Shown piece after piece: positions 11,976 through 49,249 of a stretch of DNA of 49,249 bases. The DNA is taken from the NCBI GenBank assembly GCA_028282645.1, contig JANQHM010000169.1, positions 1 through 49,249 on the forward strand. The letters are read 5' to 3'. Every line of letters starts with the position of its first letter. Positions within the stretch are counted from its first letter, which is position 1. The translations under genes and the position numbers were made by a program. The stretch comes from Candidatus Gastranaerophilales bacterium (lineage in GTDB: Bacteria > Cyanobacteriota > Vampirovibrionia > Gastranaerophilales > JANQFW01). The notes below the pieces were generated by a model. It was not told where the DNA came from, searched no databases, and saw only the letters and a program-made list of their open reading frames with translations.

Positions 11976-12069
11976 GGATAGTGGTCAGTTGAGTACTGGT
12001 GCTTACAAGTAAACTCAAGTCATATCAAAAGCTTACAGCGATGACATAAGAAAGGTGATGACCATCACC
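11976..12069 (+). mobile_element. MITE family A copy
   Basis: GGATAGTGGTCAG...GGTGATGACCATCACC. AAATTCTG direct repeat at 11969-11976 and 12070-12077; the last G overlaps the element end. Confidence 0.88.
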
Positions 12070-12077
12070 AAATTCTG

Positions 12078-12135
12078 TATACTAACTTAAAAGTACTTTT
12101 TAAATTATTCAAGTTTGTTAAAACTTTTAAAGTAC
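12078..12135 (+). repeat. Repeat family B fragment B10 (degenerate)
   Basis: TATACTAACTTAAAAGTACTTTTTAAATTATTCAAGTTTGTTAAAAC resembles the TATACTAACTC end of B only. Confidence 0.35.
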
Positions 12136-12156
12136 ACAATTTTTAATAGCAAAAAA

Positions 12157-13298: not shown

Positions 13299-13922
13299 TT
13301 AATTAGTATTTAATAAATGCACAAGAGTTACAAAGCTAGTAGCTAAATCCTGATTCAGAACTATAATATCTTTGTTAACTTTTAAATTAACAGGAGAAAA
13401 ATTCCAAATCGCTTTTATTTGAGAACTTTCTACTATTTCTATAATATTACTAACAGCACTAGCAGGGATGGTAATAATAACAAACTTAACATTATTTTTA
13501 CTAACCATATCCTGAAACCTAGAAATACAATAAATTTGTTTATTTTGAACTTTCGTCCCTATTTTTGCAGGATTATTATCAAAAATAGCAGTAATATCCA
13601 GGCCAAATTTTTTAAAACCTTCATATTTAGCAAGAGCAACACCAAGATTTCCCGCTCCGATAAGATAGGCTTCCTTAAGCTTGTTAAATCCCAAAAATTG
13701 TTCAAGATGTAGTTTTAACTCAAAGGTATCGAAACCAACCTTTGGTTTACCAACATAACCTGTTGCCGCTATATCTTTTCTGACTTGAGTGTCGTCGATA
13801 TTTAGCTCCTTGGCAATTTTAGAACTGGAAATATATTTTTTGCCATAATTAACAATTGCCGCGGAAATTATATTATAGTAGCTTGGCAGCCGTTTTAAGG
13901 TTGGAATCGATACTTGTTTCAT
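13299..13922 (-). CDS. rex: Redox-sensing transcriptional repressor Rex
   Basis: IP..T.KRLP.YY N-terminal winged-helix motif. ISS..IA..L.I...QVRKD. Rossmann GAGNLG...Y. C-terminal ..NF.P..L. Confidence 0.9.
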   Translation of the reverse strand: MKQVSIPTLKRLPSYYNIISAAIVNYGKKYISSSKIAKELNIDDTQVRKDIAATGYVGKPKVGFDTFELKLHLEQFLGFNKLKEAYLIGAGNLGVALAKYEGFKKFGLDITAIFDNNPAKIGTKVQNKQIYCISRFQDMVSKNNVKFVIITIPASAVSNIIEIVESSQIKAIWNFSPVNLKVNKDIIVLNQDLATSFVTLVHLLNTN

Positions 13923-13982
13923 ATCTATAAATCCACCGATTATTATTTATAATTACTAAAGTACTACTTGTTGTTATCTACT

Positions 13983-15731
13983 CTAGTCTTCTACGTTCCA
14001 GATATCTCTTTCTTCGTATTCTGTATGTAATAAGTGGTGAGCTTTTTTACTATTTGGTTCGCCTAAGTGCTTTTCATATAGAGTCTTCACTGATGGATTT
14101 TCATGAGATTTTTGAAGCTTCATCTTCGCATCAGCTTTATATAACCCATCTTTTCTGTTGCCCTTAATTAAACGGTCTTTACAGCTAACAGGCTGACCGG
14201 CTCCACCAATACATCCGCCGGGACATGCCATAACTTCAATTACGTCATAGTGAGCTTCGCCTTTATTGATTTTCTCAATAACTCTGTCAGCTTCAGCTAA
14301 AGTATTGATAATTGCAAGTCTAATCTTTTTACCATCAATATCAACAGTAAACTCTTTTAAAGTATCAAGCCCGCGAGCCTCTTCAAAGTTAACATTTTCA
14401 AGAGTTTTTCCGGTGATTACTTCATAAGCGGTTCTTAAAGCAGCTTCTGCAACACCGCCGGAAGCCCCGAATATAACACCTGCACCGGAATATTCACCAA
14501 ACGGCATATCCATTTCTTCAGACTCTAAATTACTGATATTAACACCGGCTGATTGTATTAACTTAAATACTTCTTGAGTAGTTAATACAATATCAACTTC
14601 TTGTACGCCATTCTTACTGAATTCAGGTCTTACAGCTTCAGCTTTTTTAGCAGTACAAGGCATAATTGATACAACAACCAAGTCTTTAGACTCAATTTTG
14701 TACTCTTTACAAAGAACATCTTTAGCTAAAGCACCGAACATTTGCTGTGGAGACTTGGCAGAAGAAAGGTTATTCAAAAAGTTCTTGTGGTTCTGCTCGG
14801 CATGTCTTACCCAGGCAGGACAACAACTTGTGAATAAAGGTAGTCTTTCATTATTTTTAAGCCTGCCAATAAGCTCAGTACCTTCTTCCATAATCGTAAC
14901 GTCTGCAGAAAAACTAGTATCAAATACTTTATTAATACCCACTCTCCTAAGCGCAGCAGCCATAATGCCAATAATATTTTCCCCTGGTGGTATACTAAAC
15001 TGTTCTCCAAGTGCAACCCTTACAGCAGGAGCTATTTGAACAATAACAGTTTTACTGTCATCATTAATAGCTTCAAATACTTTATCTACATCAGACTTAA
15101 TAGATAAAGCACCGGTTGGACAAACCGCAGCACACTGACCGCAATATACACAATCAACATCTTCAAGTTTACAGCCATATGCAGGAGCACAAACTGTTTT
15201 AGAACCTCTGTTAGAGAAGCTTAAAACGCTCTTGCCCTGAACTTCAGTACAAGCTCTAATGCAAGCACCACAAAGTATACATTTATTAGAATCTCTTACA
15301 AGACTAGGGTTAGAATCATCAATTTCAGCCTTTTCTTGTAATTTTTCAAATCTTAAGTCTTTTATATCATATTTATTTGATAATATTTGAAGTTCGCAAT
15401 CACTGCTTCTTTCGCAGGTTGTACATTCTCTGTCATGATTTGATAACAAGAGTTCAAGAGAAACCTTTCTAACTCTTCTAACTCTTTCAGAATTTGTTTT
15501 AATCTTAAGACCAGGTTCAGGAGGCATAGTACAACTAGCTTGGATTCCTCTGCCTTCAATTTCTACAACACACATACGGCATGCGCCATATAGTGTTAAA
15601 TCAGGTCTATAACAAAATGTAGGAACATCGATTCCAATTTTTTGAATTACTTCTAGCAAGTTTCTTTCATTGCTAAATTCAACTTCTTTGCCGTTTATAA
15701 ATATTGTATTTTTCACTTTAGTTTTTACCAT
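13983..15731 (-). CDS. hydA: [FeFe]-hydrogenase catalytic subunit (M3-type, HydA)
   Basis: N-terminal 2Fe-2S ferredoxin-like fold plus His-ligated and 2x[4Fe-4S] Cys clusters. H-cluster motifs TSCCPAW, MPCTAKK, EVMACPGGCIGGAGQP. Confidence 0.92.
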   Translation of the reverse strand: MVKTKVKNTIFINGKEVEFSNERNLLEVIQKIGIDVPTFCYRPDLTLYGACRMCVVEIEGRGIQASCTMPPEPGLKIKTNSERVRRVRKVSLELLLSNHDRECTTCERSSDCELQILSNKYDIKDLRFEKLQEKAEIDDSNPSLVRDSNKCILCGACIRACTEVQGKSVLSFSNRGSKTVCAPAYGCKLEDVDCVYCGQCAAVCPTGALSIKSDVDKVFEAINDDSKTVIVQIAPAVRVALGEQFSIPPGENIIGIMAAALRRVGINKVFDTSFSADVTIMEEGTELIGRLKNNERLPLFTSCCPAWVRHAEQNHKNFLNNLSSAKSPQQMFGALAKDVLCKEYKIESKDLVVVSIMPCTAKKAEAVRPEFSKNGVQEVDIVLTTQEVFKLIQSAGVNISNLESEEMDMPFGEYSGAGVIFGASGGVAEAALRTAYEVITGKTLENVNFEEARGLDTLKEFTVDIDGKKIRLAIINTLAEADRVIEKINKGEAHYDVIEVMACPGGCIGGAGQPVSCKDRLIKGNRKDGLYKADAKMKLQKSHENPSVKTLYEKHLGEPNSKKAHHLLHTEYEERDIWNVED

Positions 15732-15736
15732 TATTA

Positions 15737-17590
15737 CTAGACCTCCTTAGTAGCGTTGAATGGGCAAGAACTTAAACAAGCACCACATTTAATACACTTG
15801 TTCTGATCGATTTTATAAGGTTGCTTAACTTTACCTTCAATAGCATCAACAGGACATGATCTTGCACACTTTGAACAACCTTTACAAAGGTCTTCCGCTA
15901 TTACAATTTTTTTAAATGCTTCACAAACACCCGCAGGGCACCTCTTGCCTTCAATATGAGCCAGATATTCATCTTTAAAGTATTTTAACGTAGAAAGCAC
16001 CGGATTCGGAGCTGTTTTACCAAGACCGCAAAGAGAACCATCTTTAACTGCAAGTGCAAGCTCTTCAAGTATATCAAGATCACTAAGCTCAGCTTTGCCT
16101 GCAACTAGTTTTTCAAGGATTCTAAGCATATTTTTAGTACCTTCTCTACAAGGCACACACTTGCCACAAGACTCATTTTGTGTAAAGTTCATAAAGAATC
16201 TTGCAACTTCAACAATACAAGTATCTTCATTTAATACAACAAGCCCGCCGGATCCTACCATAGCACCTGCTTTAAGTAAAGAAGCATAGTCCAGTGGTAA
16301 ATCAAGATGCTCTTCTGTCAAACAACCGCCTGACGGACCGCCAATTTGAACAGCTTTAAATTTCTTGTTGTTTCTTATACCACCGCCTATATCAAAAATA
16401 ATTTTTCTTAAAGAAGTACCCATAGGAACTTCAATAAGACCTGTATTATTAACTTCTCCGGTTAAAGCAAAGGTTTTAGTGCCTGCACTGCCTTCCGTAC
16501 CAAGGGATTGAAACCATTCAGCACCGTTAATCATAATACCGGGTACGTTAGCAAAGGTTTCTACGTTATTAATTAAGGTTGGTTTTCCGAATAAACCTTT
16601 ATTTGCAGGGAATGGAGGTTTGGGTCTTGGCATACCTCTTTCACCTTCAATAGAAGCAATAAGAGCAGTTTCTTCACCGCAAACAAACGCACCGGCACCC
16701 TCTTTGATATGTAACTTAAAGTTAAATTTAGTTCCTAATATTTTAGAACCGAGGAAACCGTATTTTTCAGCATCAGTAATAGCTTTTCTTAATCTTTCAA
16801 TAGCTAAAGGGTATTCTGCACGTACATAGATGTATCCTTCGTCTGCACCAACCGCATAAGCAGCAAGTGCCATACCTTCTATAACTCTGTGAGGATCACC
16901 TTCCATAAGTGATCTATCCATAAATGCTCCGGGGTCACCTTCGTCACCATTGCAAATTACATATTTTTTATCGCCTTGAGCAGTTCTAACGAAAGTCCAC
17001 TTTCTCCCTGTTGGGAAACCACCGCCACCACGACCTTTTAGACCACTATCAGTAATAATATCGCATACTTCTTCAGGAGAAAGCTCTTTTAAAGCATTGC
17101 TAAGAGCTAAATATGTAGAATTTGCAATACTTTCTCTGATATCTTCAGGGTTTAGATGACCGCAATTTGATAAAGATGTTCTGGTTTGCTGTGCATAAAA
17201 GTTTATATCAGAGTTTCCTTGTTGAATATGACCATTTTGAGGATCTCTATATAATAATCTTTCTACTATTTCACCATTTTTAAGATGCTTTTCAACTATT
17301 TCTTCAACATCATCGCCTTTTACTTTGACGTAAGTAACATTTTTATCCGGTATCATAACGAGAACACCATTCTCACAGAAACCGTGGCAGCCGGTTTTAA
17401 TAGTTGTTACTCTTTCTTTTTTCATAGAAACATTAGCGCCAAGCTCTTCGAATCTTTTCACAACATCCAAAGATCCGTTTGCAACGCAGCCAGTACCTGC
17501 ACAAACAAGAACTCTTGTTCCCATTTGTTTAATATATTCTTTAGATTTTTCTTGTTCTTTTATCATGTCTACTGCAATTCCATTAATCAT
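15737..17590 (-). CDS. hydB: NuoF-like NAD(P)H-binding flavoprotein subunit of the trimeric hydrogenase (HydB)
   Basis: Thioredoxin-like [2Fe-2S] N-terminus. GRGGGGFPTGRKW and CNGDEGDPGAF (NuoF FMN/NADH site). CGKCVPCREG. C-terminal 2x CxxCxxCxxxCP ferredoxin motifs. Confidence 0.92.
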   Translation of the reverse strand: MINGIAVDMIKEQEKSKEYIKQMGTRVLVCAGTGCVANGSLDVVKRFEELGANVSMKKERVTTIKTGCHGFCENGVLVMIPDKNVTYVKVKGDDVEEIVEKHLKNGEIVERLLYRDPQNGHIQQGNSDINFYAQQTRTSLSNCGHLNPEDIRESIANSTYLALSNALKELSPEEVCDIITDSGLKGRGGGGFPTGRKWTFVRTAQGDKKYVICNGDEGDPGAFMDRSLMEGDPHRVIEGMALAAYAVGADEGYIYVRAEYPLAIERLRKAITDAEKYGFLGSKILGTKFNFKLHIKEGAGAFVCGEETALIASIEGERGMPRPKPPFPANKGLFGKPTLINNVETFANVPGIMINGAEWFQSLGTEGSAGTKTFALTGEVNNTGLIEVPMGTSLRKIIFDIGGGIRNNKKFKAVQIGGPSGGCLTEEHLDLPLDYASLLKAGAMVGSGGLVVLNEDTCIVEVARFFMNFTQNESCGKCVPCREGTKNMLRILEKLVAGKAELSDLDILEELALAVKDGSLCGLGKTAPNPVLSTLKYFKDEYLAHIEGKRCPAGVCEAFKKIVIAEDLCKGCSKCARSCPVDAIEGKVKQPYKIDQNKCIKCGACLSSCPFNATKEV

Positions 17591-22495: not shown

Positions 22496-22572
22496 TATAC
22501 TGCTTCAAAAATAAACTATTATAAGACTACTCTTTCTTGAATAATCTGAAAAGTATTTTTGAAGATATTATA
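22496..22572 (-). repeat. Repeat family B copy B11 (internally deleted)
   Basis: TATACTGCTTCAAAAATAAAC...CTTGAATAATCTGAAAAGTATTTTTGAAGATATTATA. Confidence 0.65.
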
Positions 22573-26278: not shown

Positions 26279-28312
26279 TTAATCATCATCGTCATCACTT
26301 AATAAGTCATCAATCGTGGCCTTTTTTGGAGAAGGTGAATAGCTGTCTTCAAAGCTTGAACGTGGTGCTTTCTGTGTCAACTTGCTCTTAAAATACCCTA
26401 ATGCACCTTGCTTACCCCAGTTTTTAGCGTTTAATTCTGTTTTGCAAAGTGTTTTTCTTGCAATATCCTGGTCAACGTCATAAATAGCTTCTTTCACGTC
26501 ATTAGCTTTTATATTTTTATCTAGTCGTTTTAAATTATAAACCATAGCATCCTCAAAGCTGCGCTCAGGCACAGAAGGAAATTTGTCAATACCGTCTTGG
26601 CTGGTCATAATAGGCGGACGAGGAAACTTAACAAAAATATACTGGTTAAAATGCGGATGTCTAATAAGCAGCTTACCCTTTTCAAGGGTAGTAAGCTCGG
26701 CTTTAATACTCGAAGGCATTACACTATAACCTTGAGTAGATAGCTCATCCATATCCATACGTCCATAGACGCTAGTACCACAGTTACCAACGATTCTTTT
26801 GTTAACCTGAGACTTGAACTGTTGCGCGGAAAACAACACTAGGCCGAGATATCTTCCCCTCTCAGATATTTCAAGCAAGGTTTGCTTTAGATACGAGTTA
26901 CCACAATCATTAGAAGCATATTTATTAAGCTCATCCACAAACACAACAACTTTTTTAACCCCAAGTGCCTTTTTCTCGAGTAGTTCTCTAAGCTTTTCAA
27001 CCGCTCTTGTAAATACCAGGTCCTGTCCCAGGGGACTAACACCTGCAACGTCGATAACATAGATAGTCCTGTCTTTAAATTCACCCCAGGGTAAATCACT
27101 ACTGTCAGAATCATTCCCAACAAGGCCTTCGCACCTGTAAGTAATGTTCGTCAGCCTATTGTGGACTTTCCTAATGGTTGGTATAGCGTGTCCTCTCCAA
27201 CTGGATTTGCCTTCACCTTCCTCTGTATCATTTAAAACCCGCTGGAACCACTCGTTAAGATCGTTAAAATTCTGTATTTTTTTATGCAGCAAATAATGAG
27301 AGTCAAGCTTGTCCTGATTAATAATTTTTTCTTTCATAAACTGCAAAAACCCATCCGCTTTTGCATCTACATCATCTTTATTCATTAAAACATTTACATA
27401 ATCGAAAATATCAGTTAAGTTCCAGCTCAAAGGCTTAACATTATAGCTGATTTCCTCGTTTGTTCTTAAGGTATTCAAGTTAATTTTATCAGCTTTATAT
27501 GGTGCATAATATTCAACATTTTCAAAGGGTTTTGGTTCCAGTTTAAGTTTTCTGTACATTTCCAGCTCTTCTTGGGATAATTCAACAGCCGGCTGATCTA
27601 AAAACAATAAGTCAGGCCCTTTTACGTTGAATAAAACAGCAGCCACGCCCTCGTCATCCTTATCGTCTTTATGGTATTGGAAGATACTGGTTAACAAGAA
27701 TTGTACAATACTGGTCTTAGTTGCCAAGCCCGATACACCCGTAACATTAAGGTGAGCAGCTTCAGGGCCTAGTAAAAACCTGGAATCAAGATATACAGGA
27801 GAATAATTATCACCGTTAGTATAAAGCCCGACCGGTATGCCTGTTTTATCCGCATAACCGTCCATTCGTAGGGACTCTTTAATATCAGCATCGTCCGCCA
27901 AATAAATATTACCTATAGATACCGGCTGAATAGGCTCTTCAGGTATCATTTTAAGCGTTGAAGCCGTATAATATCTTATTTCAGGACGCTCCGTCTGTGC
28001 GCTGTCACTATATTGCGGGTTCCCCTCAGAACTTATAAAGTCGTGTATAGGTGCAGCCAAGTCAGTATAACTAATGCCTTCCGTTACAATACCGTAGACA
28101 ATGCGGTCAACTTTATTTCCTTTTTTATCAACGACTTGCCTGTCCGCAACAACTTTAACAATCGTGCCTATACCCACAGGCGAATCTAAATTTGTCCAAA
28201 AGCTAAAAGACTGTGCCGTATTAGGATTTTTTTCCGTAGCAATTACTCTGCCTACAGCTTTATTATGTACATATTTAAGTTGATCCTCTATTGATTCTAA
28301 ACTTGGATGCAT
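26279..28312 (-). CDS. herA: HerA-like hexameric ATPase/translocase (FtsK-HerA superfamily) with a non-canonical P-loop
   Basis: N-terminal HAS-barrel-like segment (GRVIATEKNP..FSFW......VGIGTIVKV). P-loop position reads VTGVSGLATKTS. Walker B VVVFVDELNKYA. Genomic pairing with nurA. Acidic tail DDLLSDDDDD. Confidence 0.75.
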   Translation of the reverse strand: MHPSLESIEDQLKYVHNKAVGRVIATEKNPNTAQSFSFWTNLDSPVGIGTIVKVVADRQVVDKKGNKVDRIVYGIVTEGISYTDLAAPIHDFISSEGNPQYSDSAQTERPEIRYYTASTLKMIPEEPIQPVSIGNIYLADDADIKESLRMDGYADKTGIPVGLYTNGDNYSPVYLDSRFLLGPEAAHLNVTGVSGLATKTSIVQFLLTSIFQYHKDDKDDEGVAAVLFNVKGPDLLFLDQPAVELSQEELEMYRKLKLEPKPFENVEYYAPYKADKINLNTLRTNEEISYNVKPLSWNLTDIFDYVNVLMNKDDVDAKADGFLQFMKEKIINQDKLDSHYLLHKKIQNFNDLNEWFQRVLNDTEEGEGKSSWRGHAIPTIRKVHNRLTNITYRCEGLVGNDSDSSDLPWGEFKDRTIYVIDVAGVSPLGQDLVFTRAVEKLRELLEKKALGVKKVVVFVDELNKYASNDCGNSYLKQTLLEISERGRYLGLVLFSAQQFKSQVNKRIVGNCGTSVYGRMDMDELSTQGYSVMPSSIKAELTTLEKGKLLIRHPHFNQYIFVKFPRPPIMTSQDGIDKFPSVPERSFEDAMVYNLKRLDKNIKANDVKEAIYDVDQDIARKTLCKTELNAKNWGKQGALGYFKSKLTQKAPRSSFEDSYSPSPKKATIDDLLSDDDDD

Positions 28313-28325: not shown

Positions 28326-29378
28326 TTAAGCAAATGCAAGACTTTCAAGTAAAGTCCAGCTTGGAGCTTTACATTTTAAATAATCTTCACAATATTTAAT
28401 AGGATAAATCATCCTGTCCCATCGAGATTCAGGAAATGCAATCGGGTTAGCTTCCAGCAATATCCAGCTGCTGATTTCGTCCACTTTGGATAGTAAGTCT
28501 GCCCTGTCAGGTATTTCAACCCGTATAATACCAAAGTCCATCTTGCCGTAGTTTTTATCCGAATGCAATCTTAAATACCAGCTAAAAACCTTTTCAGGAG
28601 TATTTTTAAATCTTCTTTTGGGCCTAAAAGCACAAGAACGCTCACCCTTTTTTATATTATAGATGCGGCATAGTTTTTCATAATCAAAGTACTGTACGTT
28701 ATGAGACTTAATAACACCTACTACATTAGCTTTTTTCATTAATTCACTGCTAATATTAGTAAGCCCGCCGTCAACATATAGCCAATCATCAGAGTTTTTA
28801 AACTCCAGTGCCCACTCATTAGCCATTGTTGACTCCATATGCCTTCTGTTCTCCTGAATTGCACTGTGCGCTTTTTTCTCAAACTCTTCCGGCATTAAAG
28901 GATAGTCAGATTCCCCCTTTGCTTTTATGCCTATATTTATAGGATTTATATTATAATCTTTAAAATCTTCAGCTTCTAAATAAAACTCAGGCTCGTCCCC
29001 GTTGAATTTAAACGGTAAATAAATATTCTCTTCCGCTCTTTTCAGACCTATTGAGTGCATTTTTTTATCAGTACGCTTCATTATTACAGCAGACATATAG
29101 CCGTAAGTAAAGGGAATAAAGTTATAATACATCAAAATACGCTTTTTTTCTATTCCATCCAAAAAATAATTGAACTTCGACCCACTTGCACTGACCTTAA
29201 TTTTTTTTGTACAAAATGCCCCATTATCTTCTACTATCTGAGCCTCCACATACTCAGTCTCTTGAGGTTGATATTTGGCAAAATCAAAATCTTGGTTACC
29301 ATTCGCACGATTAACACGAATATTTTTCCCCGCTTGCCTTTGCTCCTTTATATATTGAGAAAATTTTTTTAGTAGCAC
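28326..29378 (-). CDS. nurA: NurA-family 5'-3' nuclease
   Basis: NurA-like landmarks FLDGIEK (first catalytic Asp context), WLYVDGGL, VVGVIKSH, FSWYLRL, IIRVEIP, YPIKYCEDYLK. GTG start; exact start uncertain. Confidence 0.7.
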   Translation of the reverse strand: MLLKKFSQYIKEQRQAGKNIRVNRANGNQDFDFAKYQPQETEYVEAQIVEDNGAFCTKKIKVSASGSKFNYFLDGIEKKRILMYYNFIPFTYGYMSAVIMKRTDKKMHSIGLKRAEENIYLPFKFNGDEPEFYLEAEDFKDYNINPINIGIKAKGESDYPLMPEEFEKKAHSAIQENRRHMESTMANEWALEFKNSDDWLYVDGGLTNISSELMKKANVVGVIKSHNVQYFDYEKLCRIYNIKKGERSCAFRPKRRFKNTPEKVFSWYLRLHSDKNYGKMDFGIIRVEIPDRADLLSKVDEISSWILLEANPIAFPESRWDRMIYPIKYCEDYLKCKAPSWTLLESLAFA

Positions 29379-37807: not shown

Positions 37808-39493
37808 TTATTTTTTATCTACCAGCTTCAGCTTGTCAAACTCCACACCTGTTCGACCTGAACCCATTAGCATGTCAAATCCGAAGAGCGAACGCCTTCT
37901 AACAATATCATAGCCCATTTTAAACTTAAAATCTTCTGAGCCAACTTTAACATAAAACTGGTTTTCGGTAGCAAATCGACTTTCCCAGTTATCTTCGGTA
38001 ATGTTAAAGTGGGCCAAGTGGCCAAGACTAAAGGATTTATTTATATCAACTTCTTCTCTGATTATGACGCTGCTTTTACCTTGATTATACCTGTCAAATA
38101 AAAACGGCGAATCACCATAAGTAGCGGCCTGAAAGTAAGTAGTAGATAACCTTAGCCTGTCAGCTAAATTGCTTCTAAGATTAGGGCCTACTCTAACCAG
38201 GCCAAAAGTGTCACCATTGCCGTAAGCCGCTATTTGTCCTTGTGAGACCAACCTGAATTCCAAAAATTCATCTTTTATCTTAAAAATAGGTTTGTCATTA
38301 ATCAATGTAGATTGCATCTGAAACCTGCCGGTCCCAAAGTCCCTTGCATAATCTTGAGCATAGCCCGCGCTTGATCTTAAAAACAAGTTAAAGTTCAAAG
38401 CTGCGCTCAAGAGCCTGTCATCGACTATTTCAGCAATATACTTAGGTTTTTTCTTTCCAAAAAATCCGTTATCAATATAAGAATTAGATCCGTAAAGGAT
38501 TTTAGTATTTTTGCCCCACAGATCCTGCTCACCCTCAACAACAACTTTATCACCGGAAGTTGTATAAGCAACTTCTGTTTGGTTAGTTGCATTCATAAAT
38601 CGTGCATATCCGCCAAGGCCGATAGCTTCATTGCCTGCAAATCCAAACAAAGGAGCTAGTTTAAGCGTAGAGGCAAAAGGCGTGCTAAAAACATAGCTTG
38701 GTCCCACATATCCTCCAAGTTCTTTAGAACGCCCAATAACGGGCAGCATTGTTTCAACTCTTTTTAACTCTTTGTCAGTTGACAGTTTTAAAGAAGGAAC
38801 TGTAGCAAGGTTAAACTTTCCAAATTTAAATTTTGTCCTTTTTAAAGTTATTTGGTTTTTATTAGCGTAACAAGTTATATTTACTTCTTTTGCGCTAATC
38901 TTATAACTTGGCACTTCCTGCTTTTCAGGTGCTGTCAAGACTTTTTCAGTACCTAAATTAGTTAAAGGTTCAGGTACATATACATTAGAAGTTAAAGTTA
39001 ATTTTAAGTCTTCGTTATTTACAAGCAGTTTACCATTGCTAAGAATTAAACTTTTAGGATAAATATCCGCTTTTTCCGCACTTATTTTTACTTTTAAAAT
39101 AACAGTATCAGGATGATCGATAAGTGCAGACTCTTTAGTTAAGTCCACTTTTGCAAAATTACCATGAATAACGTTGCCGTTCTTAATTATTTTCACTTTA
39201 TCTTCAGCAACCAACGTGTTTTTATCCTGGTCAAAAGTAATTTTTCCTGCTTCCAGGCTTGCATCCTTATCCTTTAAATATATTTTTGCATTGCCTGTAG
39301 CTACAAACAAATTTTTTTCTTCAAAGTATTCCAGCTTATCGCTTTTCATATTTACAATTACTGCTTTTTTATTAATTGCAGTTTGATTGTTATTAGCTTT
39401 ACCTAACTTCAATCCAAGTGCCTGAGGCGAATTTAACCCTGATAAAACAACCCCCAAGATAATAAAACAACTTAATAATTTAAGATTATGCAT
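37808..39493 (-). CDS. OstA/LptD-like outer-membrane protein
   Basis: Signal peptide. N-terminal OstA-like beta-jellyroll pattern (SDKLEY.....L.VATGNAKIY......L.AGKITFDQ....LVAEDKVKI..NG....G). About 400-aa beta-rich C-terminal region. Confidence 0.5.
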   Translation of the reverse strand: MHNLKLLSCFIILGVVLSGLNSPQALGLKLGKANNNQTAINKKAVIVNMKSDKLEYFEEKNLFVATGNAKIYLKDKDASLEAGKITFDQDKNTLVAEDKVKIIKNGNVIHGNFAKVDLTKESALIDHPDTVILKVKISAEKADIYPKSLILSNGKLLVNNEDLKLTLTSNVYVPEPLTNLGTEKVLTAPEKQEVPSYKISAKEVNITCYANKNQITLKRTKFKFGKFNLATVPSLKLSTDKELKRVETMLPVIGRSKELGGYVGPSYVFSTPFASTLKLAPLFGFAGNEAIGLGGYARFMNATNQTEVAYTTSGDKVVVEGEQDLWGKNTKILYGSNSYIDNGFFGKKKPKYIAEIVDDRLLSAALNFNLFLRSSAGYAQDYARDFGTGRFQMQSTLINDKPIFKIKDEFLEFRLVSQGQIAAYGNGDTFGLVRVGPNLRSNLADRLRLSTTYFQAATYGDSPFLFDRYNQGKSSVIIREEVDINKSFSLGHLAHFNITEDNWESRFATENQFYVKVGSEDFKFKMGYDIVRRRSLFGFDMLMGSGRTGVEFDKLKLVDKK

Positions 39494-44148: not shown

Positions 44149-44179
44149 GCAATTATTAAAAAGGAAAATTGTTTATATA
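44149..44179 (+). promoter_or_regulatory. Conserved promoter-like module GCAATTATT-N9-AATTGTTTATATA (upstream of 44307 gene)
   Basis: Same 31-nt module with identical spacing at 45428 and 46667. Ends in a TATATA -10-like hexamer. Lies 128 nt upstream of the ATG. Confidence 0.5.
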
Positions 44180-44306
44180 TATAAAAGATGAGAGAAAAAT
44201 TTAGCTGTTTAATTTTATTTAAAAGAAAAATAAAGAAGAGAATTTTTTTGCTTTTTAATTTTATTTAATGAGAGAGATACAAGATATTTGAGAGGAGAGA
44301 ACGAAT

Positions 44307-45143
44307 ATGGCTAGAGTCGGAGGCAGATCTAAAGGTCGGTCTAGAAGCAGATCTAAAAGCAGATCCAAAAGCAGACCTAAAAGTAGATCAAAAGCGGCAC
44401 CTAGAAAAGCGGCACCTAAAAAAGCGGCACCTAAACAAGCAGCAGCTAAAAAAGCAGCACATAAACAAGCAGCACCTAAAAGATCAGCAGCAAGCGGAGG
44501 AACTCAACCTAAAAAAGGAAGTCCTTTAGCAGCAAAGGATAAAGGTATTTTTAACAGTGCGAAACCTGGAAGTTTTGGAAAAAAGTCAGATCTTGCAAAT
44601 CCGCAATCTCAACTTTCTGATGCATTTAAGCCGGGTATGCCCGGAAGTGCCGCTTCAGGAAGTGGACCGCTTGCTGCAAGCGGAGCACCAGCCGGAGGAA
44701 GCGGACCACTTGCTGCAAACGAAGCTCCAGCCGGAGGAGCAGCACCTGCTGAAGAAGGAGGTGCAGGCGGCGGCTTTGGAGATATATTAGGCGGCTTGGC
44801 TGATGCTGCAATGGGTGCATTAGGATCACTTGGCGGCATGTTTGGCGGCGGCGGCGGTGGTGAAGAAGCCGCACCGACTGAAGGAGGCGGCGGAGCAGGA
44901 GCAGCTCCTCCGGCAGCTGCAGAAGAAACTCCACCACCTGCTGAAGGAGAAGTTCCGCCTGAAGAGGAAATACCTCCTGAATTACTTGACCTGCTTCAAA
45001 CAATAGATCCTGAATTATATGAACAATATATGAATGGAGAAGTTACTGCACAAGAGGTTAAAAGCCTGTATCCCGGAGTGTTTGAAAAAACAGGGGACGG
45101 CGCAGCAGCTGAAGGGGAAGTACCTCCTGTACCCGTCACTTAG
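44307..45143 (+). CDS. Low-complexity protein P1: basic RS/KAAP-repeat N-terminus, Gly/Ala-rich core, acidic Pro/Glu C-terminus
   Basis: GAGAGGAGAG RBS. RSKGRSRSRSKSRSKSRPKSRSK then AAPRKAAPKKAAPKQAAAKKAAHKQAAPK (histone-H1/AlgP-like). No hydrophobic signal sequence. Confidence 0.7.
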   Translation: MARVGGRSKGRSRSRSKSRSKSRPKSRSKAAPRKAAPKKAAPKQAAAKKAAHKQAAPKRSAASGGTQPKKGSPLAAKDKGIFNSAKPGSFGKKSDLANPQSQLSDAFKPGMPGSAASGSGPLAASGAPAGGSGPLAANEAPAGGAAPAEEGGAGGGFGDILGGLADAAMGALGSLGGMFGGGGGGEEAAPTEGGGGAGAAPPAAAEETPPPAEGEVPPEEEIPPELLDLLQTIDPELYEQYMNGEVTAQEVKSLYPGVFEKTGDGAAAEGEVPPVPVT

Positions 45144-45162
45144 AACCGGTATATAAAAGCAA

Positions 45163-45330
45163 TATATTAACTCTAAAATACTTTTCAGATTATTCAATCG
45201 TGTAAAAACTAATAAAAATAAGCTATTCTCTGAATTGCGAAGCGGGAGCGTTAAAAAGTGAAATGGTCAATTTTACTTTTTATAAGCTCATTCCAAAGAG
45301 TAACCTGAAATTTAATTTTGTACCAATATA
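45163..45330 (+). repeat. Repeat family B copy B14 carrying the ~60-nt insert C
   Basis: TATATTAACTCTAAAATACTTTTCAGATTATTC...CTCTGAA [insert] AAGAGTAACCTGAAATTTAATTTTGTACCAATATA. Confidence 0.8.
45235..45295 (+). repeat. Insert C nested in B14
   Basis: TTGCGAAGCGGGAGCGTTAAAAAGTGAAATGGTCAATTTTACTTTTTATAAGCTCATTCC. Internal 12-bp hairpin AAAAAGTGAAAT/ATTTTACTTTTT. Its first 27 nt recur at 49223-49249, at the same position in B17. Confidence 0.7.
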
Positions 45331-45427
45331 AAGTAAAAAACTCACTTTAGCAAAACTAATACTAAAGTGAGTTTTTTAATGAATTATATATTTTTAAAAG
45401 AATTTTTTATTATTTCTTAAGTAAATG

Positions 45428-45458
45428 GCAATTATTGAATAAATAAATTGTTTATATA
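45428..45458 (+). promoter_or_regulatory. Conserved promoter-like module GCAATTATT-N9-AATTGTTTATATA (upstream of 45538 gene)
   Basis: Exact match to both conserved halves. Lies 80 nt upstream of the ATG. Confidence 0.5.
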
Positions 45459-45537
45459 AACATACGGTTTAAAAGATAAAAGTTGCTTGATTTTTTTGAG
45501 AGAGTTAGAGAAAACTTAGAAAAAGAGAGGATTTAAT

Positions 45538-46419
45538 ATGGGTTTACTTGGAGGCTTAGGCAAAGGCCTAAGTAATGGCATCGGTAAAGGCCTGCCTAAA
45601 AGCGCAGGCAACGGATTAACCAATGGCATCGGCAAAGGCCTGCCTAAAAGTGTAGGCAGCGGATTAACCAATGGCATCGGCAAAGGCCTGCCTAAAAGCG
45701 CAGGCAATGGATTAAATTCAATTTTTGGAGGAGGAGCGGGCTTGGCCCAGGGCATTACTGGTAATGTATTAGGCAGTATTCCGCCTAAAGGTACTCAAAA
45801 CGCTGCCCAAAATCCGCCGGCAACAGCTCAAAATAATACAACTCAACAAAAAGAAGGAGGTACTTCTAAAGATCAATTATTAGAATTATTAATGACTTTA
45901 CTCACAAAAATAATGGGTAAAAATGGCCAGGCAGCTCCTAAAGGACAAACTGTTGCCGCACCAAAACAAGCTGCGTCTGCACCTAAAGGACAGACCGCTG
46001 AAGTGGCACCTGCTCCTAAAGGGCAGACTACTACAACGGTTAAACAAGCTCCACCTGCTCCTAAAAAGGAAATCATTACAACCGATAAACCAAGCCAACC
46101 GGTTACTGACGGCAAAACTGCCGCAACTACCTCTCCGGGGCAACCAGCCGCTGATGGCAAAACTACCACCACTACCGCTCCGGAACAATCCGTCACTAAA
46201 GGCAACACTGCCACTACAACTGCTAAAAAAGGCGAAAAATCGGATGATGATGAAAAAACTACCAAAAACGTAAAAAAGACAACTACAACAACTACTAGCC
46301 AACCTGACGAGGGACAAGCCGCTACAATTACTAACCAGGGCCAACAACCTGACGGAGGTGAAAATACTACAGTTACTACCCAAGGCCAGCAAACTGCCGA
46401 GGGTGAAAAGAAAGACTAA
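45538..46419 (+). CDS. Low-complexity protein P2: three GL[ST]NGIGKGLPKS[AV]G[NS] repeats then a Thr/Gln/Pro/Lys-rich tail
   Basis: AGAGAGGA RBS. Nucleotide-level 48-nt repeats at 45570-45715. No signal peptide. Confidence 0.7.
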   Translation: MGLLGGLGKGLSNGIGKGLPKSAGNGLTNGIGKGLPKSVGSGLTNGIGKGLPKSAGNGLNSIFGGGAGLAQGITGNVLGSIPPKGTQNAAQNPPATAQNNTTQQKEGGTSKDQLLELLMTLLTKIMGKNGQAAPKGQTVAAPKQAASAPKGQTAEVAPAPKGQTTTTVKQAPPAPKKEIITTDKPSQPVTDGKTAATTSPGQPAADGKTTTTTAPEQSVTKGNTATTTAKKGEKSDDDEKTTKNVKKTTTTTTSQPDEGQAATITNQGQQPDGGENTTVTTQGQQTAEGEKKD

Positions 46420-46490
46420 AAATTTGGAAAATTCTTTAAGAAAAAGGATATCCAGGCTAAAAAGCCAGGCAACAAAATAATTATACTACT

Positions 46491-46589
46491 TATACAAATA
46501 AATTTCAGGTTACTCTTTCCGGATAAACTCTATTTTTTATTAGCTTTAATATTATTAAATAACCTGAAAAATATTTTAGAGTTAGTATA
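46491..46589 (-). repeat. Repeat family B copy B15
   Basis: TATACAAATAAATTTCAGGTTACTCTTTCCGG...ACCTGAAAAATATTTTAGAGTTAGTATA. Confidence 0.8.
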
Positions 46590-46666
46590 ATACAAAAAAT
46601 TCTCCCTTTAATTTAGGTAAAGGGGGGATTTTTTTATTAATTATATATATTTTTTAAAAATAAATA

Positions 46667-46697
46667 GCAATTATTTAAGAGATAAATTGTTTATATA
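46667..46697 (+). promoter_or_regulatory. Conserved promoter-like module GCAATTATT-N9-AATTGTTTATATA (upstream of 46906 gene)
   Basis: Exact match to both conserved halves. Lies 209 nt upstream of the ATG. Confidence 0.5.
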
Positions 46698-46736
46698 TAT
46701 AGACGTAAGTTAGATATACTCCCTTAAAAATACTTA

Positions 46737-46861
46737 GAGCCTGTCTGGTTAAAAAAATAAAAGCTGGTTATATCAATAATAAAGGCTCATTTACGGACTG
46801 CGATGTTAAAGCTGAAGCGGCTTGCCAGGCAAGGCGATGCAAGCTTTAACAAGACAGCTTC
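46737..46861 (+). other. Candidate structured leader RNA (locally GC-rich) in the 5' region of the 46906 gene
   Basis: Perfect 9-bp helix GTTAAAGCT (46805-46813) / AGCTTTAAC (46842-46850) encloses a GC-rich 28-mer. Outer pairing CTGTCT (46741-46746) / AGACAG (46852-46857). Confidence 0.3.
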
Positions 46862-46905
46862 TTACAGAGAGAGAAATGCAAAATTTTTTAGAGAAGAGGT
46901 TTTAA

Positions 46906-47412
46906 ATGGCTTTAAATGACATAAATGGAACAAAAGGATCAAAAAGACCTTTTAAAGGCTCTGGAAAAAATTCTAGGAAGAATGATAAAACAGACACGCC
47001 GGTTTTTGATAAAAACAGAACTCCGGATGCCAGGTTAAAAGCACTGTTAAACTCGCTTGAAAAAAAGCTTGATAGCGGAGATATCGGTAAAGAAGCTAAC
47101 AACAAGATACTTGAGGCCTTGAAGGAGATTAAAACAGGTATTGACCAAGGGGAAACACCAAAGAATAAAGGACAAAATACAGACAAAATTTTTAATCCGG
47201 GTAAAAGCATACCAAGCTCGCCTTACGGACCTATTACCGGTGTGCCTATGGGTAGAATATCAAATAATTTTTTTCCGGGCGTGCCCGAGTTAAAACCGGC
47301 CGGTACTACGCCAACAGGGATTAAAGACTTAAGCGGAATGGGAGCAATAACCGGTGTTCCTTTAGGAGAGCTTCCGCAAGGGCTTGCTCCTGGAGTACCT
47401 AAAATGGAATAA
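46906..47412 (+). CDS. Low-complexity protein P3 (Lys/Asn/Gly/Pro-rich; ITGVP[ML]G repeated)
   Basis: AGAAGAGG RBS. GPITGVPMGRI and GAITGVPLGEL repeats. Followed by a terminator. No signal peptide. Confidence 0.65.
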   Translation: MALNDINGTKGSKRPFKGSGKNSRKNDKTDTPVFDKNRTPDARLKALLNSLEKKLDSGDIGKEANNKILEALKEIKTGIDQGETPKNKGQNTDKIFNPGKSIPSSPYGPITGVPMGRISNNFFPGVPELKPAGTTPTGIKDLSGMGAITGVPLGELPQGLAPGVPKME

Positions 47413-47446
47413 CTTTAAACCAATGACTGTAATATACACTCAAGCA

Positions 47447-47477
47447 AAAGCCTCTATTCCTTTATAGGGGCTTTTTG
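47447..47477 (+). terminator. Rho-independent terminator after P3
   Basis: AAAGCCTCTAT / ATAGGGGCTTT (11 bp, one G:U) followed by TTTGTCT. Confidence 0.7.
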
Positions 47478-47501
47478 TCTAAAATACTTCAATAAAAAAA
47501 A

Positions 47502-47594
47502 GCTAGTGCTCAGGTGAGTACTTATGCTTACAAGTAAACTTAACTTATATCAAAAGCTTACAGCGATGCCATAAGAAAGGTGATGACCATCACC
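47502..47594 (+). mobile_element. MITE family A copy (divergent left end)
   Basis: GCTAGTGCTCAGGTGAG...GGTGATGACCATCACC. Flanked by A-runs on both sides (AAAAAAAA / AAAAAAAT). Confidence 0.8.
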
Positions 47595-47615
47595 AAAAAA
47601 ATATAAAATAATTAA

Positions 47616-47646
47616 GCAATTTTCAGACTTATTTTGTTTTTATAAT
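47616..47646 (+). promoter_or_regulatory. Promoter-like module GCAATT-N19-TATAAT (variant; about 50 nt duplicated at 49001-49054)
   Basis: GCAATTTTCAGACTTATTTTGTTTTTATAAT has the same GCAATT-to-hexamer spacing (19 nt) as the three modules above. Confidence 0.4.
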
Positions 47647-47878
47647 AATAAGAATATATAAGTAGAAAACAACAACTTTAAGCATCTTACAAGTTTATTT
47701 AATAACTTAAATTAAAAATTAACAATTAGTAGGTTAACGTAGAAACGTAGAAAAGATTTATTTTATATATTTATCTATTAGTAGGTAATACACTAAAAAT
47801 TTTTAATATTTATTTTATCTATAAATAGATTTATGTAATGAGCTACAATATCTATATTTATCTGCAAGTAGATTTTTA

Positions 47879-47993
47879 TATACTATTTCTAAAATAGTTT
47901 TCAGATTATTCAATCGTTTTAAATCTAATAAAATAAACTAAATTCTGAAAAGAGTAATCTAAGATTTATAAGATTTAATTGATGAGCAGTATA
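47879..47993 (+). repeat. Repeat family B copy B16
   Basis: TATACTATTTCTAAAATAGTTTTCAGATTATTCAATCG...CTGAAAAGAGTAATCTAAGATTTATAAGATTTAATTGATGAGCAGTATA. Confidence 0.8.
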
Positions 47994-48111
47994 AAAATTA
48001 TCAGTATTTTTTATTTTATTATTCTTTTACCTTTTACCCAAAATAAGTTTGTAACTTATATATTAAATTAAAATCGAGAGATAAGCATATTATTAATGAG
48101 GAGGATTCATT

Positions 48112-48864
48112 ATGGCAGCAGTAAATAATAGACCAAAACCACAGGCGGCAAAAGCAGCAGGACCAAAAGCAGCAGGACCAAAGGCAGCAGGACCAAAGGC
48201 AGCAGCAAAAGCAAAAGCAGCAGGATCTATAGGAGCTTCTAAGGGTCCTAAAACTCCTAAAGGAGCTCAAGGAATATTTAATAAGCTTCAAGGAGCAAAA
48301 GGAGCTCAAGGAGCTCAAGGGGCAGAAAAATCAAAAGGACCACAAGGGCCACAAGGGGCAAAACCGGAAGGAGGACAAGAACTAAAAGATAAAAATAATC
48401 CTAAAGGTGATCTTAAGGATAAAGGCCTTCAAGACGTATTTAAAAATGGTTTTAAAGACATAATGAATGCCTTGCAACAAGGCGGTGGTAAAGACGGTAA
48501 TTCTCCTAAAAAAGCTGAAGGCGGCGGCGGATGTGAAGGTGGCAACTGCGGCGGCGGTGGAGCACAAAAAGCCGAAGGTGGCGGCGGCTGTCAAGGTGGT
48601 CAATGCGGCGGTGGCGGCGGCGGCGATATGCAAAAAGCCGTAAAAGATGTTAAAAAGGCAGAGCAAGAAGGGACCTCAAGAGAAGAGGCTATCCCTCCAG
48701 CAGCACAAAAGAACAGCGTAGAAGAGCCTGAGTTAAAGCAAGCAGTAGAGCAAAGCGATCAACAAGGCCAGAAAGGCCAAGGTAAAGGCCAAAGCAAAGG
48801 CAAAGGATGCGGCGGTCCGGGGCAACCACCATGTCCTGGTACCCAAAAAGCTAAAAAGAAGTAA
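48112..48864 (+). CDS. Low-complexity protein P4: KAAGP repeats, short collagen-like GXY run, two GGGGC.GG.CGGGG boxes, Gln/Lys/Gly tail
   Basis: GAGGAGGA RBS. AAKAAGPKAAGPKAAGPKAAAKAKAAG. GAKGAQGAQGAEKSKGPQGPQGAKPEG. GGGGCEGGNCGGGG / GGGGCQGGQCGGGGGG. Followed by a terminator. Confidence 0.7.
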   Translation: MAAVNNRPKPQAAKAAGPKAAGPKAAGPKAAAKAKAAGSIGASKGPKTPKGAQGIFNKLQGAKGAQGAQGAEKSKGPQGPQGAKPEGGQELKDKNNPKGDLKDKGLQDVFKNGFKDIMNALQQGGGKDGNSPKKAEGGGGCEGGNCGGGGAQKAEGGGGCQGGQCGGGGGGDMQKAVKDVKKAEQEGTSREEAIPPAAQKNSVEEPELKQAVEQSDQQGQKGQGKGQSKGKGCGGPGQPPCPGTQKAKKK

Positions 48865-48916
48865 ATTAAAAGAGCCGCATAAGTAAAAAATAATACACAT
48901 AATAAAATCATAATAG

Positions 48917-48952
48917 AAAAAAGAGGTTATCCAACGGACAGCCTCTTTTTTT
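48917..48952 (+). terminator. Rho-independent terminator after P4
   Basis: AAGAGG..(loop)..CCTCTT followed by a run of eight T. Confidence 0.65.
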
Positions 48953-48984
48953 TAAAGTTTTTGGAAATAATAAAAGCGTCTTTA

Positions 48985-49019: not shown

Positions 49020-49050
49020 GCAATTTTATATACTTTTTTGTTTTTATAAT
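49020..49050 (+). promoter_or_regulatory. Promoter-like module GCAATT-N19-TATAAT (second variant copy)
   Basis: GCAATTTTATATACTTTTTTGTTTTTATAAT. The flanks ATATAAAA..ATAA and TTTTGTTTTTATAATAATAA are shared with 47601-47651. Confidence 0.4.
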
Positions 49051-49151: not shown

Positions 49152-49249
49152 TATACTAACTCAAAAATACTTTTCAGATTATTCAATCCTGTTAAATCTA
49201 ATAAAATAAGCTAAACTCTGAATTGCGAAGCGGGAGCGTTAAAAAATGA
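49152..49249 (+). repeat. Repeat family B copy B17 with insert C, truncated by the window end
   Basis: TATACTAACTCAAAAATACTTTTCAGATTATTCAATCC...AACTCTGAA then TTGCGAAGCGGGAGCGTTAAAAAATGA from 49223. Confidence 0.8.

Follow-up and report, generated by a model that had tools for sequence, protein, structure and literature searches.

What use a bacterium might have for a row of unrelated, mostly disordered proteins, and whether the reading frames that would encode them are genes at all, are the questions raised by a stretch of 49,249 nucleotides (nt) from a Candidatus Gastranaerophilales bacterium (contig JANQHM010000169.1, about 30% GC), hereafter the window. Next to a gene for an envelope protein with SLH domains, it carries four plus-strand genes, P1 to P4, to which we refer as the island. 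Gastranaerophilales are non-photosynthetic relatives of cyanobacteria, and the Vampirovibrionia bacteria of Porites skeleton are uncultured. The 90% sequence cluster of the SLH protein contains two further proteins, and their contigs, L001 and L002, are the loci with which the window was compared (18 island proteins of eight families across the three genomes). Both contigs are labelled 'MAG: Candidatus Gastranaerophilales bacterium' (MAG, metagenome-assembled genome; isolates PL23b_bin.2 and PL25a_bin.58) and come from the skeleton of the coral Porites lutea, and a genome scan for further loci returned just these two relatives. Vampirovibrionia, the class of the host, are among the dominant members of the P. 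lutea skeleton community (PMC9868349).

We are highly confident that the island is a lineage-restricted set of genes (four in the window, as many as ten in a relative), which are separately transcribed, each with a strong ribosome-binding site (RBS) and a terminator of its own, and which share an island-specific module and a GAGAGA leader motif, probably as one co-regulated set. Their products are orphan proteins of coral-skeleton Gastranaerophilales that evolve fast, are mostly disordered and lack export signals. As to function, our preferred reading, to which we assign a probability of about 0.35, is that these are co-induced cytoplasmic scaffold proteins of the sticker-and-spacer kind, which would bind polyanions (DNA, RNA or polyphosphate).

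Conservation and divergence of the island genes

The initial annotation of this DNA had described four co-oriented plus-strand open reading frames (ORFs), all of which we recovered, and had proposed a search for syntenic clusters in relatives. In both L001 and L002, a co-oriented row of genes without Pfam matches is transcribed divergently from the SLH gene, which anchors the island as its conserved neighbor in each of the three genomes, and the products match P1 to P4 in the same order, with their reading frames conserved. L002 contains P1, P2, P3, an extra gene (Px) for a protein of 146 amino acids (aa), and P4. L001 has ten genes, namely P1, two P2 paralogs that reflect a duplication within that locus, P3, Px, P4, and genes for proteins of 193, 91, 357 and 60 aa, after which comes a gene for a TPR protein. 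Neither Px nor a remnant of it was found in the window between P3 and P4 (47413–48111). Island gene content differs between close relatives in the presence of Px, the duplicated P2 and the four additional L001 genes.

The window stops at a copy of an element resembling miniature inverted-repeat transposable elements (MITEs). Because the island of one relative has ten genes, four of them past the P4 ortholog, the island of the window is probably cut off by the contig end, and a fifth copy of the shared module, downstream of P4, implies that a further island gene lies beyond it.

Between the three genomes, island proteins are 40–63% identical (nonsynonymous divergence, dN, 0.25–0.58), compared with 92–95% for the SLH protein (dN 0.03–0.04), so that they have diverged roughly 10-fold faster than their neighbor. 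Ratios of nonsynonymous to synonymous divergence (dN/dS) were 0.2–0.57 for the island genes and about 0.05 for the SLH gene, the former values being rough because dS of the island genes is near saturation (1.0–1.5). Low complexity alone does not explain this divergence, because the low-complexity Cys/Pro region of the SLH protein is 86% invariant. What is retained within families is composition together with short motifs. The P1 family conserves the RS/KS start and the patterns GGFGD.LGGL.(E/D)A..GALGSLG.MFGGGGGGEE and EIP...L....E....MNGE.T..(E/D)VK...P..F; the P2 family M.LLGG, S.F and a helix L...L.TLL; the P3 family PVFDK, a helical hairpin and Pro/Gly motifs ending in LAPGVPK; and the P4 family the start M.AV...P.PQA.KA and paired-Cys boxes (CxGGxC / CKDGKC).

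The island could in principle consist of fortuitous ORFs in repetitive, GC-rich DNA, or of decaying remnants. Alternative frames of the same DNA are open for 100–160 codons, the exact P1 and P2 sequences are missing from the protein collection searched, no homologs were found outside the clade, and no RNA run holds the locus. Set against this are the retention of frames, start contexts and gene order in three genomes, a strong three-base signal, the family motifs, a conserved RBS, leader and terminator for every gene, and dN/dS below 1. We regard this explanation as wrong with near certainty, because frames, start contexts and family motifs have been kept at dS of about 1 or more. The initial annotation would have read a lack of frame conservation in related genomes as a sign of fortuitous ORFs; the frames are conserved in both relatives. 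The protein collection in question (15 billion proteins) does hold P3, P4 and the SLH protein of the same contig, and the depositor's gene caller may have skipped P1 and P2 or picked other starts for them.

The initial annotation had further attributed the GC richness of these genes, in an AT-rich genome, to their codons, and this was borne out. GC content at the first and second codon positions (GC1 and GC2) of P1 to P4 was 0.47–0.67 and 0.44–0.62, respectively, while at the third (GC3) it was 0.23–0.33, as in the rest of the window; in P1 the three values were 0.67, 0.62 and 0.23. Because the GC excess is confined to the first two positions and the third is genome-like, P1 to P4 are native genes whose amino acid composition (Gly, Ala, Pro, Lys) drives their GC richness. 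An origin from phages or mobile elements was considered and rejected, as there was no PHROGs match, two viral scans (IMG/VR) returned no relatives of the P2 or P3 families, and GC3 equals that of the host.

Variation at the strain level was seen in metagenome run X3, which contains a strain whose SLH contig differs from the window at 1 of 940 positions and whose P4 allele is identical to protein P0003. In this allele, 17 of 18 substitutions fall within 80 nt (window 48287–48366, codons 59–85), where they amount to eight amino acid changes and eight synonymous codons, and a 9-nt deletion has removed one KAAGP unit. This stretch of P4 has a mosaic look. In the assembled contigs of this run, neither P1 nor P3 had a match of at least 80–85% identity. 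The pattern, which rests on assembled contigs, hints at strain-level hypervariability, and it could be due to recombination, hypervariability or assembly drop-out.

Shared expression signals

Each of the four genes has a purine-rich RBS 6–8 nt ahead of its ATG, in keeping with the strong RBS first ascribed to it, and each has on its 3' side a hairpin with a U run (z –4.5 to –6.8 relative to shuffled sequences). Terminators had originally been recognized at P3 and P4 only; both are present, and P1 and P2 have them as well. Because each gene has its own terminator, P1 to P4 are read as four monocistronic units, and we conclude from the combined sequence comparisons that they are genuine genes, predicted to be transcribed separately.

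A promoter-like module with the pattern GCAATT-N19-TATAWW (strict form, GCAATT N12-22 TTGTTTWTATA) recurs along the island. All five of its matches in the 49-kb window lie inside the island and on the plus strand, where 0.01 would be expected by chance, and in L001 and L002 it is again confined to the islands and is conserved upstream of the orthologs. The initial annotation had seen such a module at P1, P2 and P3, which proved correct; P4 too has a variant of the module, situated about 470 nt upstream in all three genomes and followed by conserved blocks, and the fifth copy lies past P4. In the form that precedes P1 to P3, an inverted repeat, CAATT-N12-AATTG, stands immediately 5' of the TATATA box. 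By inspection only, the module is not a good fit to sigma-54, sigma-28, CRP-type or MerR-type sites, and we describe it as an uncharacterized, putative promoter/operator specific to the island.

Two further elements were found in the upstream regions. The operator-like pattern TTATCT-N5-TAGRT has three matches in the window, all of them upstream of P4 (0.12 expected), and inexact relatives in L001. The motif GAGAGA occurs about 20 nt 5' of the Shine-Dalgarno sequence of every island gene in all three genomes, and 8 of its 20 copies in the window fall within the four leaders. No conserved RNA structure was found in the P1 leader (seven invariant pairs, no covariation), and Rfam and tRNA scans returned nothing. 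Because the same module and the same leader motif precede every gene, the island genes probably form one co-regulated set, and the shared operator offers a handle on the regulator and on the remaining regulon.

Protein architecture and candidate functions

The four proteins are built from dissimilar parts. P1 has a basic N-terminus, composed of an RS/KS run (25 aa) and KAAPK repeats that cover about 35 of its 278 residues, and forms a charge diblock, with a net charge of +28 over residues 1–100 and about –24 over the remainder; further on it contains the motif GIFN, a Gly-rich hydrophobic helix (158–172), an acidic Pro/Glu/Ala tract, and a small helical C-terminal domain (222–262). P2 starts with MGLLGGLGKGL, continues with three 16-aa (48-nt) repeats (repeat family D6) and the motif SIFG, which holds its only Phe, and ends in an amphipathic helix, LLELLMTLLTKIMGKNG, and a Thr/Pro/Lys/Gln-rich tail. 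P3 has the motif PVFD, a helical hairpin (40–80), and the conserved Pro/Gly motifs ITGVP.G, FFPGVP and LPQGLAPGVPK. P4 begins with KAAGPK repeats and the motif GIFN, which are followed by a hypervariable Gly/Gln/Lys segment (codons 59–85), a helix (FKDIMNALQQ), two GGGGCxGGxCGGGG boxes and a C-terminal CGGPGQPPCPG; its net charge is +19. The RS run of P1, the three repeats of P2 and the Cys boxes of P4 are thus all present as first described, while the collagen-like GXY run attributed to P4 did not hold up. It amounts to two runs of about three triplets each, has no Pfam Collagen match, is broken in the near-identical strain (P0003) and is absent from the L001 and L002 orthologs, and membership of P4 among bacterial collagen-like proteins (Scl, BclA) was rejected.

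The claim that all four proteins are of low complexity stands for P1, P2 and P4, in which 68–72% of 20-aa windows have an entropy below 3.0 bits (1–9% in ordinary proteins of the window); P3 is not of low complexity, yet FoldIndex predicts it to be unfolded. AlphaFold2 models of P1 and P3 had a mean predicted local distance difference test (pLDDT) score of 55–57 and contained short helices only. In P3 these form the hairpin, the remaining chain being of low confidence, and in P1 they consist of helix 158–172 and a confident small helical bundle at 222–262 (pLDDT 80–91), the rest being disordered; a Foldseek search with the P1 model gave no match. The disorder suspected at the outset agrees with composition and entropy as well as with these models, and P1 to P4 are predicted to be largely disordered. 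The island proteins nonetheless have a common layout, in which a conserved N-terminus is followed by a Phe motif, a low-complexity spacer, one amphipathic helix and a low-complexity tail.

For the Phe motif, [ILVM]-F-[NSGDT], 22 occurrences were counted (3.5 expected), spread over 15 of the 18 island proteins, and none of 2000 composition-preserving shuffles reached the observed number. Orthologs are not independent in this count, and its weight rests on the spread of the motif across unrelated families, seven of eight of which contain it (Px alone lacks it). A protein has one to six copies, several of which read xFG; Ser or Gly usually precedes the motif, which as a rule follows the N-terminal tract and in some proteins contains the only Phe. 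The shared module, the shared leader motif and this shared linear motif are new here, going beyond the initial annotation.

Similarity searches placed none of these proteins in a known family. For all island proteins of the three genomes there was no match in Pfam, NCBIfam or PHROGs, and only sub-threshold, compositional matches were seen (HC2, the SR region of coronavirus N, TP2). The P3 family comprised three members among 5.8 billion proteins, and an exhaustive search of 1.84 billion representatives with a P3-family profile returned two of the three members from which the profile was built, together with spurious coiled coils (for example, a plant myosin-like protein). Two other searches were uninformative: no relative emerged from the 8,000 word-index candidates scored with the P1-family alignment, probably because low-complexity words dominated them, and a P1 C-terminal query found nothing at that database size. 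Two metagenome scans gave no relevant locus (L005 is an unrelated SLH protein), and PDB sequence searches yielded compositional noise only, such as the hinge of ribosomal stalk protein P2. On the evidence of these searches, no island family has a detectable homolog elsewhere, and the island appears to be restricted to its lineage. Nor do P1 to P4 constitute a single paralogous family, as no blastp match between them fell below E 0.07 and hhalign probabilities were at most 3.5%. A C-terminal helix-turn-helix, 'LG[IV]P.E..L..LM.G', was seen by eye in Px and the 91- and 193-aa proteins; a small hidden Markov model gave no significant extension to P1–P4, and we do not claim it.

The absence of signal peptides noted at the outset was confirmed and extended: a hydropathy scan found neither a signal peptide nor a membrane helix in any of the 18 island proteins. 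Their best 12-residue Kyte-Doolittle mean in the first 60 aa was at most 1.0, compared with 2.18 in the SLH protein, and their best 19-residue mean was at most 1.26. The ORFs of P1 to P4 are already maximal upstream. Export by the Sec or Tat pathway or as lipoproteins was rejected, since none of the 18 proteins has a hydrophobic N-terminal core.

These properties underlie our preferred reading, under which the island proteins would remain in the cytoplasm and act as sticker-and-spacer scaffolds. A cytoplasmic location is suggested because none of the 18 has an export signal while their SLH neighbor has a canonical one. Polyanion binding is suggested because P1 is a +28/–24 diblock, P4 has a net charge of +19, and basic N-termini recur, including that of the 357-aa relative; the Lys/Arg-rich N-terminal tracts of these three proteins would bind nucleoid DNA, RNA or polyphosphate. 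The stickers would be the Phe motif, the single amphipathic helix of each protein and the helical C-terminal domain of P1, and through them a protein may bind to itself, to other island proteins or to a shared docking partner. Low-complexity spacers would need to keep only their composition, which could account for their rapid divergence. One regulator acting at the shared module would turn the whole set on together, and the products would then form a condensate or gel-like phase under some condition, such as stress, starvation or dormancy.

The closest known systems are analogies rather than families. Phase-separating sticker-and-spacer proteins such as eukaryotic FG-nucleoporins and FUS-like low-complexity domains and bacterial CsoS2-type scaffolds resemble the island proteins in having sparse ΦF[NSGD] stickers in Gly/Ser/Asn/Lys/Gln spacers, in keeping their composition while their sequence drifts, and in being basic and disordered. 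Unlike them, the island proteins have only one to six Phe motifs each, and no shell or pore genes lie nearby. The histone H1-like Lys/Ala/Pro-repeat proteins (Pseudomonas AlgP, the C-terminus of PhaF, Chlamydia Hc2) offer a second parallel, which the initial annotation had drawn for P1 and P4. AlgP associates with polyphosphate granules (PMC9239181), and PhaF binds RNA through a disordered region rich in Lys (PMC12818456). P1, P4 and the 357-aa protein of L001 do start with tandem KAAPK or KAAGPK units, and they share with the H1-like proteins the lack of a signal and the disorder. The likeness does not go beyond composition, however, and family membership was rejected, as the HC2 profile (PF07382) scored 14.7 bits on P1 (E 0.035) and 22.1 bits on the 357-aa protein, compared with a cutoff of 40. 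The basic repeats of the island span only 35–90 residues and then give way to unrelated acidic, Gly-rich or Cys-box regions, P2 and P3 are without such repeats, and the island consists of several unrelated disordered proteins clustered under one module.

Several observations weigh against a cytoplasmic, polyanion-binding role. P2 and P3 have no strongly basic tracts, and the H1/AlgP likeness of the others is compositional. Three features, a mucin-like, Thr-rich tail in P2, Pro/Gly motifs in P3 and paired-Cys boxes in P4, would be more usual in structural proteins outside the cell. The island has also stayed beside an envelope gene, and it is the SLH side that is retained while the opposite flank differs in all three genomes. 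The dN/dS ratios are rough at near-saturated dS, and the runs that contain the locus are DNA runs of coral metagenomes only, with no RNA run among them.

The main rival to cytoplasmic scaffolds starts from some of these same observations, and it is a possibility that we take seriously, while thinking it doubtful. The proteins would be envelope, sheath or matrix components, exported without an N-terminal signal by a type I-like, flagellar-type, lysis or other route and assembled on the SLH-anchored surface, possibly with cross-linking or glycosylation; the signal for export or docking would lie in the Phe motif or in the conserved termini. Proteins that are disordered and rich in Gly are typical substrates of type I systems. 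That the island adjoins the SLH gene in three genomes, although its other flank differs, fits this scheme, as do extracellular-type compositions (the Thr-rich tail of P2, the CxGGxC / CKDGKC pairs of P4, which echo the Cys/Pro N-terminus of the SLH protein, and PGVP in P3). The very fast divergence and the mosaic hypervariable segment of P4, which differs between near-identical strains, resemble surface proteins under diversifying pressure. On the other hand, no signal peptide, lipobox or membrane anchor was present in any of the 18 proteins, in an organism whose SLH protein uses a canonical Sec signal; no transporter gene lies in the window or the fetched flanks; Pfam and NCBIfam scans recognized no RTX, sorting or CTD motifs; and mean dN/dS is below 1.

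Hydrophilins and LEA proteins provide another comparison that keeps the proteins in the cytoplasm. Like Bacillus subtilis GsiB and Escherichia coli YciG, the island proteins are small, Gly-rich, hydrophilic, disordered and signal-less, and they are encoded by monocistronic genes with strong expression signals. They could then be abundant, co-induced stress protectants that shield proteins or membranes, or vitrify the cytoplasm, under osmotic, redox or pH stress in the coral skeleton, with no specific polyanion binding. By the hydrophilin criterion of more than 6% Gly and a mean hydrophilicity index above 1 (a grand average of hydropathy, GRAVY, below –1), P4 qualifies (Gly 22.8%, GRAVY –1.11), whereas P1, P2 and P3, at 13–17% Gly, fall short in hydrophilicity (GRAVY –0.54, –0.76 and –0.72, respectively). 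The strong RBS, terminators and shared module are as in bacterial general-stress hydrophilin genes, the amphipathic helix of each protein recalls the K-segments of dehydrins, and export signals are lacking. Against this explanation, blocky charge, Cys boxes and a shared Phe motif are foreign to LEA proteins, and membership in the LEA, KGG, CsbD and YtxH families was rejected, there being no Pfam or NCBIfam match at E values up to 1. We consider stress protection of this general kind unlikely.

The resemblance to the outer coat of Bacillus spores is of a different kind. Clusters of the CotG, CotB and CotH genes (PMC7821199, PMC4130616) share a combination of traits with the island: the proteins lack signals, the genes are monocistronic and use a common promoter type, one product has SR/SK repeats (in the island, those at the N-terminus of P1), and boxes rich in Cys and tracts rich in Thr occur. 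The proteins would in that case be made in the cytoplasm and laid on an internal or daughter structure of a resting stage, as a spore-coat or cyst-like layer, with the RS/KS run phosphorylated as in CotG and CotB and with cross-links between the Cys boxes, as in CotY or CdeC. Neither a CotH kinase nor a sporulation gene was present among the window ORFs scanned, however, and there is no homology to any coat protein. The relatives, moreover, are labelled Gastranaerophilales, a group related to cyanobacteria that is not known to sporulate. A coat role is very unlikely, and CotG-like membership, suggested by the 25-aa run, was rejected because no scanned ORF of the window has a CotH domain and because of the taxon label.

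A bolder proposal, which we think improbable, is that the island is a self-contained toolkit for an undescribed bacterial structure. Unrelated, signal-less, disordered proteins, induced together from one dedicated operator, would dock through the Phe motif to a common partner, either a new route of export and assembly onto the SLH-anchored envelope or the nucleating factor of an intracellular condensate, and would build a composite, rapidly diversifying matrix.

Bacterial disordered proteins, such as AlgP, PopZ and CsoS2, are usually encountered singly. The island is unusual in bringing up to ten unrelated ones together, in their own transcription units, with one cis-module and one linear motif. 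If they are scaffolds, as we tentatively prefer, the island would be a compact natural system in which to study the parts that composition, sparse stickers and co-regulation play in building a bacterial phase or matrix of several components; if they are ordinary hydrophilins or surface decoration, it would add modestly to the known orphan proteins of low complexity.

Features of the locus and its surroundings

In the SLH protein (Table 1), a signal peptide is followed by about 215 aa rich in Cys, Pro and Gln and built of CPxxC, CPQPC and CPTC units; after three SLH repeats, the C-terminal 220 aa or so gave no Pfam match. The motif [IVP]TGAAA recurs about nine times along its length.

The repeat families A, B and C that were reported to separate the island genes do lie between them, but they are mostly genome-wide, MITE-like dispersed elements rather than features of the island. 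The element is about 115 nt long and bounded by terminal inverted repeats (TIRs; TATAC..TTTTCAGATTATTC / GAGTAATCTGAAA..GTATA), and it has ten copies in the window, as marked by a core 18-mer found ten times; all ten are intergenic, and four lie in the island. In the copies at 45182 and 49171, an insertion of about 50 nt (CTGAATTGCGAAGCGGGAGCGTTAAAAA...) is nested. Metagenome word depth is 5,000–12,500 in repeat-bearing intervals and about 50 in unique DNA and genes, which implies hundreds of repeat copies; the locus itself has a depth of 50–90x in two runs. Two further dispersed repeats, in the P3 leader and at about 47500–47600 (word depth of the latter about 12,500, compared with about 55 in the flanking genes), are relatively GC-rich and structured-looking, for example GCTGAAGCGGCTTGCCAGGCAAGGCGATGCAAGC.

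Table 1. Coordinates of the island, its expression signals, repeats and SLH neighbor (window positions, except for the extra gene Px and for orthologs, which are given on L001 and L002)
Feature	Position	Strand	Remarks
SLH-domain envelope protein, 812 aa	41425–43863	–	Pfam SLH 3e-31; signal peptide; adjoins island in three genomes
Putative promoter/operator module 1	44149–44179	+	Upstream of P1; GCAATT-N19-TATATA with inverted repeat CAATT-N12-AATTG
P1 leader	44180–44306	+	A/G-rich, unstructured; GAGAGA at 44190, 44270–44277, 44295; RBS GAGAGGAGA at about 44290–44298
P1, 278 aa	44307–45143	+	Orthologs L002:4066–4956, L001:8545–9510
MITE-like copy	45163–45322	+	TIR TTTTCAGATTATTC / GAGTAACCTGAAA; nested insertion; genome-wide, not island-specific; word depth about 7,000 vs about 55
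P1 terminator hairpin	45334–45378	+	–18.9 kcal/mol, z –6.8; A run before and U run after, could act bidirectionally
Putative module 2	45428–45458	+	Upstream of P2
P2, 293 aa	45538–46419	+	Orthologs L002:3170–3814, L001:7027–7722, L001:7888–8274
MITE-like copy, inverted (I1-I3)	46491–46598	–	
P2 terminator hairpin	46594–46634	+	–20.1 kcal/mol, z –5.5
Putative module 3	46667–46697	+	Upstream of P3
High-copy dispersed repeat in P3 leader	46736–46862	+	Word depth about 7,700 vs about 55; absent from short L002 P3 leader
P3, 168 aa	46906–47412	+	Orthologs 56% and 37% identical; best-conserved family
P3 terminator hairpin	47444–47478	+	–16.1 kcal/mol, z –5.0
Putative module 4	47616–47644	+	Variant GCAATTTT-N-TTGTTTTTATAAT; about 470 nt upstream of P4
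Three operator-like sites TTATCT-N5-TAGRT	47771–47873	+	P4 upstream region; 43–44 nt apart; one is a perfect palindrome, ATCTATAAATAGAT
MITE-like copy	47879–47995	+	P4 upstream region
P4 proximal leader	48076–48111	+	CGAGAGATAAGCATATTATTAATGAGGAGGATTCATT (GAGAGA motif and RBS); nearly invariant in three genomes
P4, 250 aa	48112–48864	+	Orthologs L001:3928–4668, L002:287–1132; strain variant P0003
P4 terminator hairpin	48915–48953	+	–16.6 kcal/mol, z –4.5
Putative module 5	49020–49048	+	Downstream of P4
MITE-like copy cut by contig end	49152–49249	+	Probable cause of assembly break
MITE core 18-mer	888–905, 994–1011, 7387–7404, 7959–7976, 8255–8272, 22535–22552, 45182–45199, 46553–46570, 47898–47915, 49171–49188		
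Px, 146–158 aa	L001:5159–5635; L002:1583–2023	–	Two amphipathic helices; between P3 and P4 orthologs

Elsewhere in the window, five ORFs of 677, 350, 561, 254 and 252 aa had no Pfam match (26279–28312, 28326–29378 and 37808–39493 on the minus strand, 9602–10366 on the plus strand, and 12157–12915 on the minus strand, respectively). The 561-aa ORF opens with a hydrophobic segment resembling a signal peptide, and its product could be an outer-membrane protein. The window also contains an [FeFe]-hydrogenase cluster with HydA-like (582 aa) and NuoF-like (617 aa) proteins and a Rex-like regulator (207 aa), as well as the carbamoyltransferase HypF, a maturase for [NiFe]-hydrogenases; cluster and HypF lie at 13299–17590 (minus strand) and 2817–5105 (plus strand). 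These hydrogenase genes fit a fermentative anaerobe.

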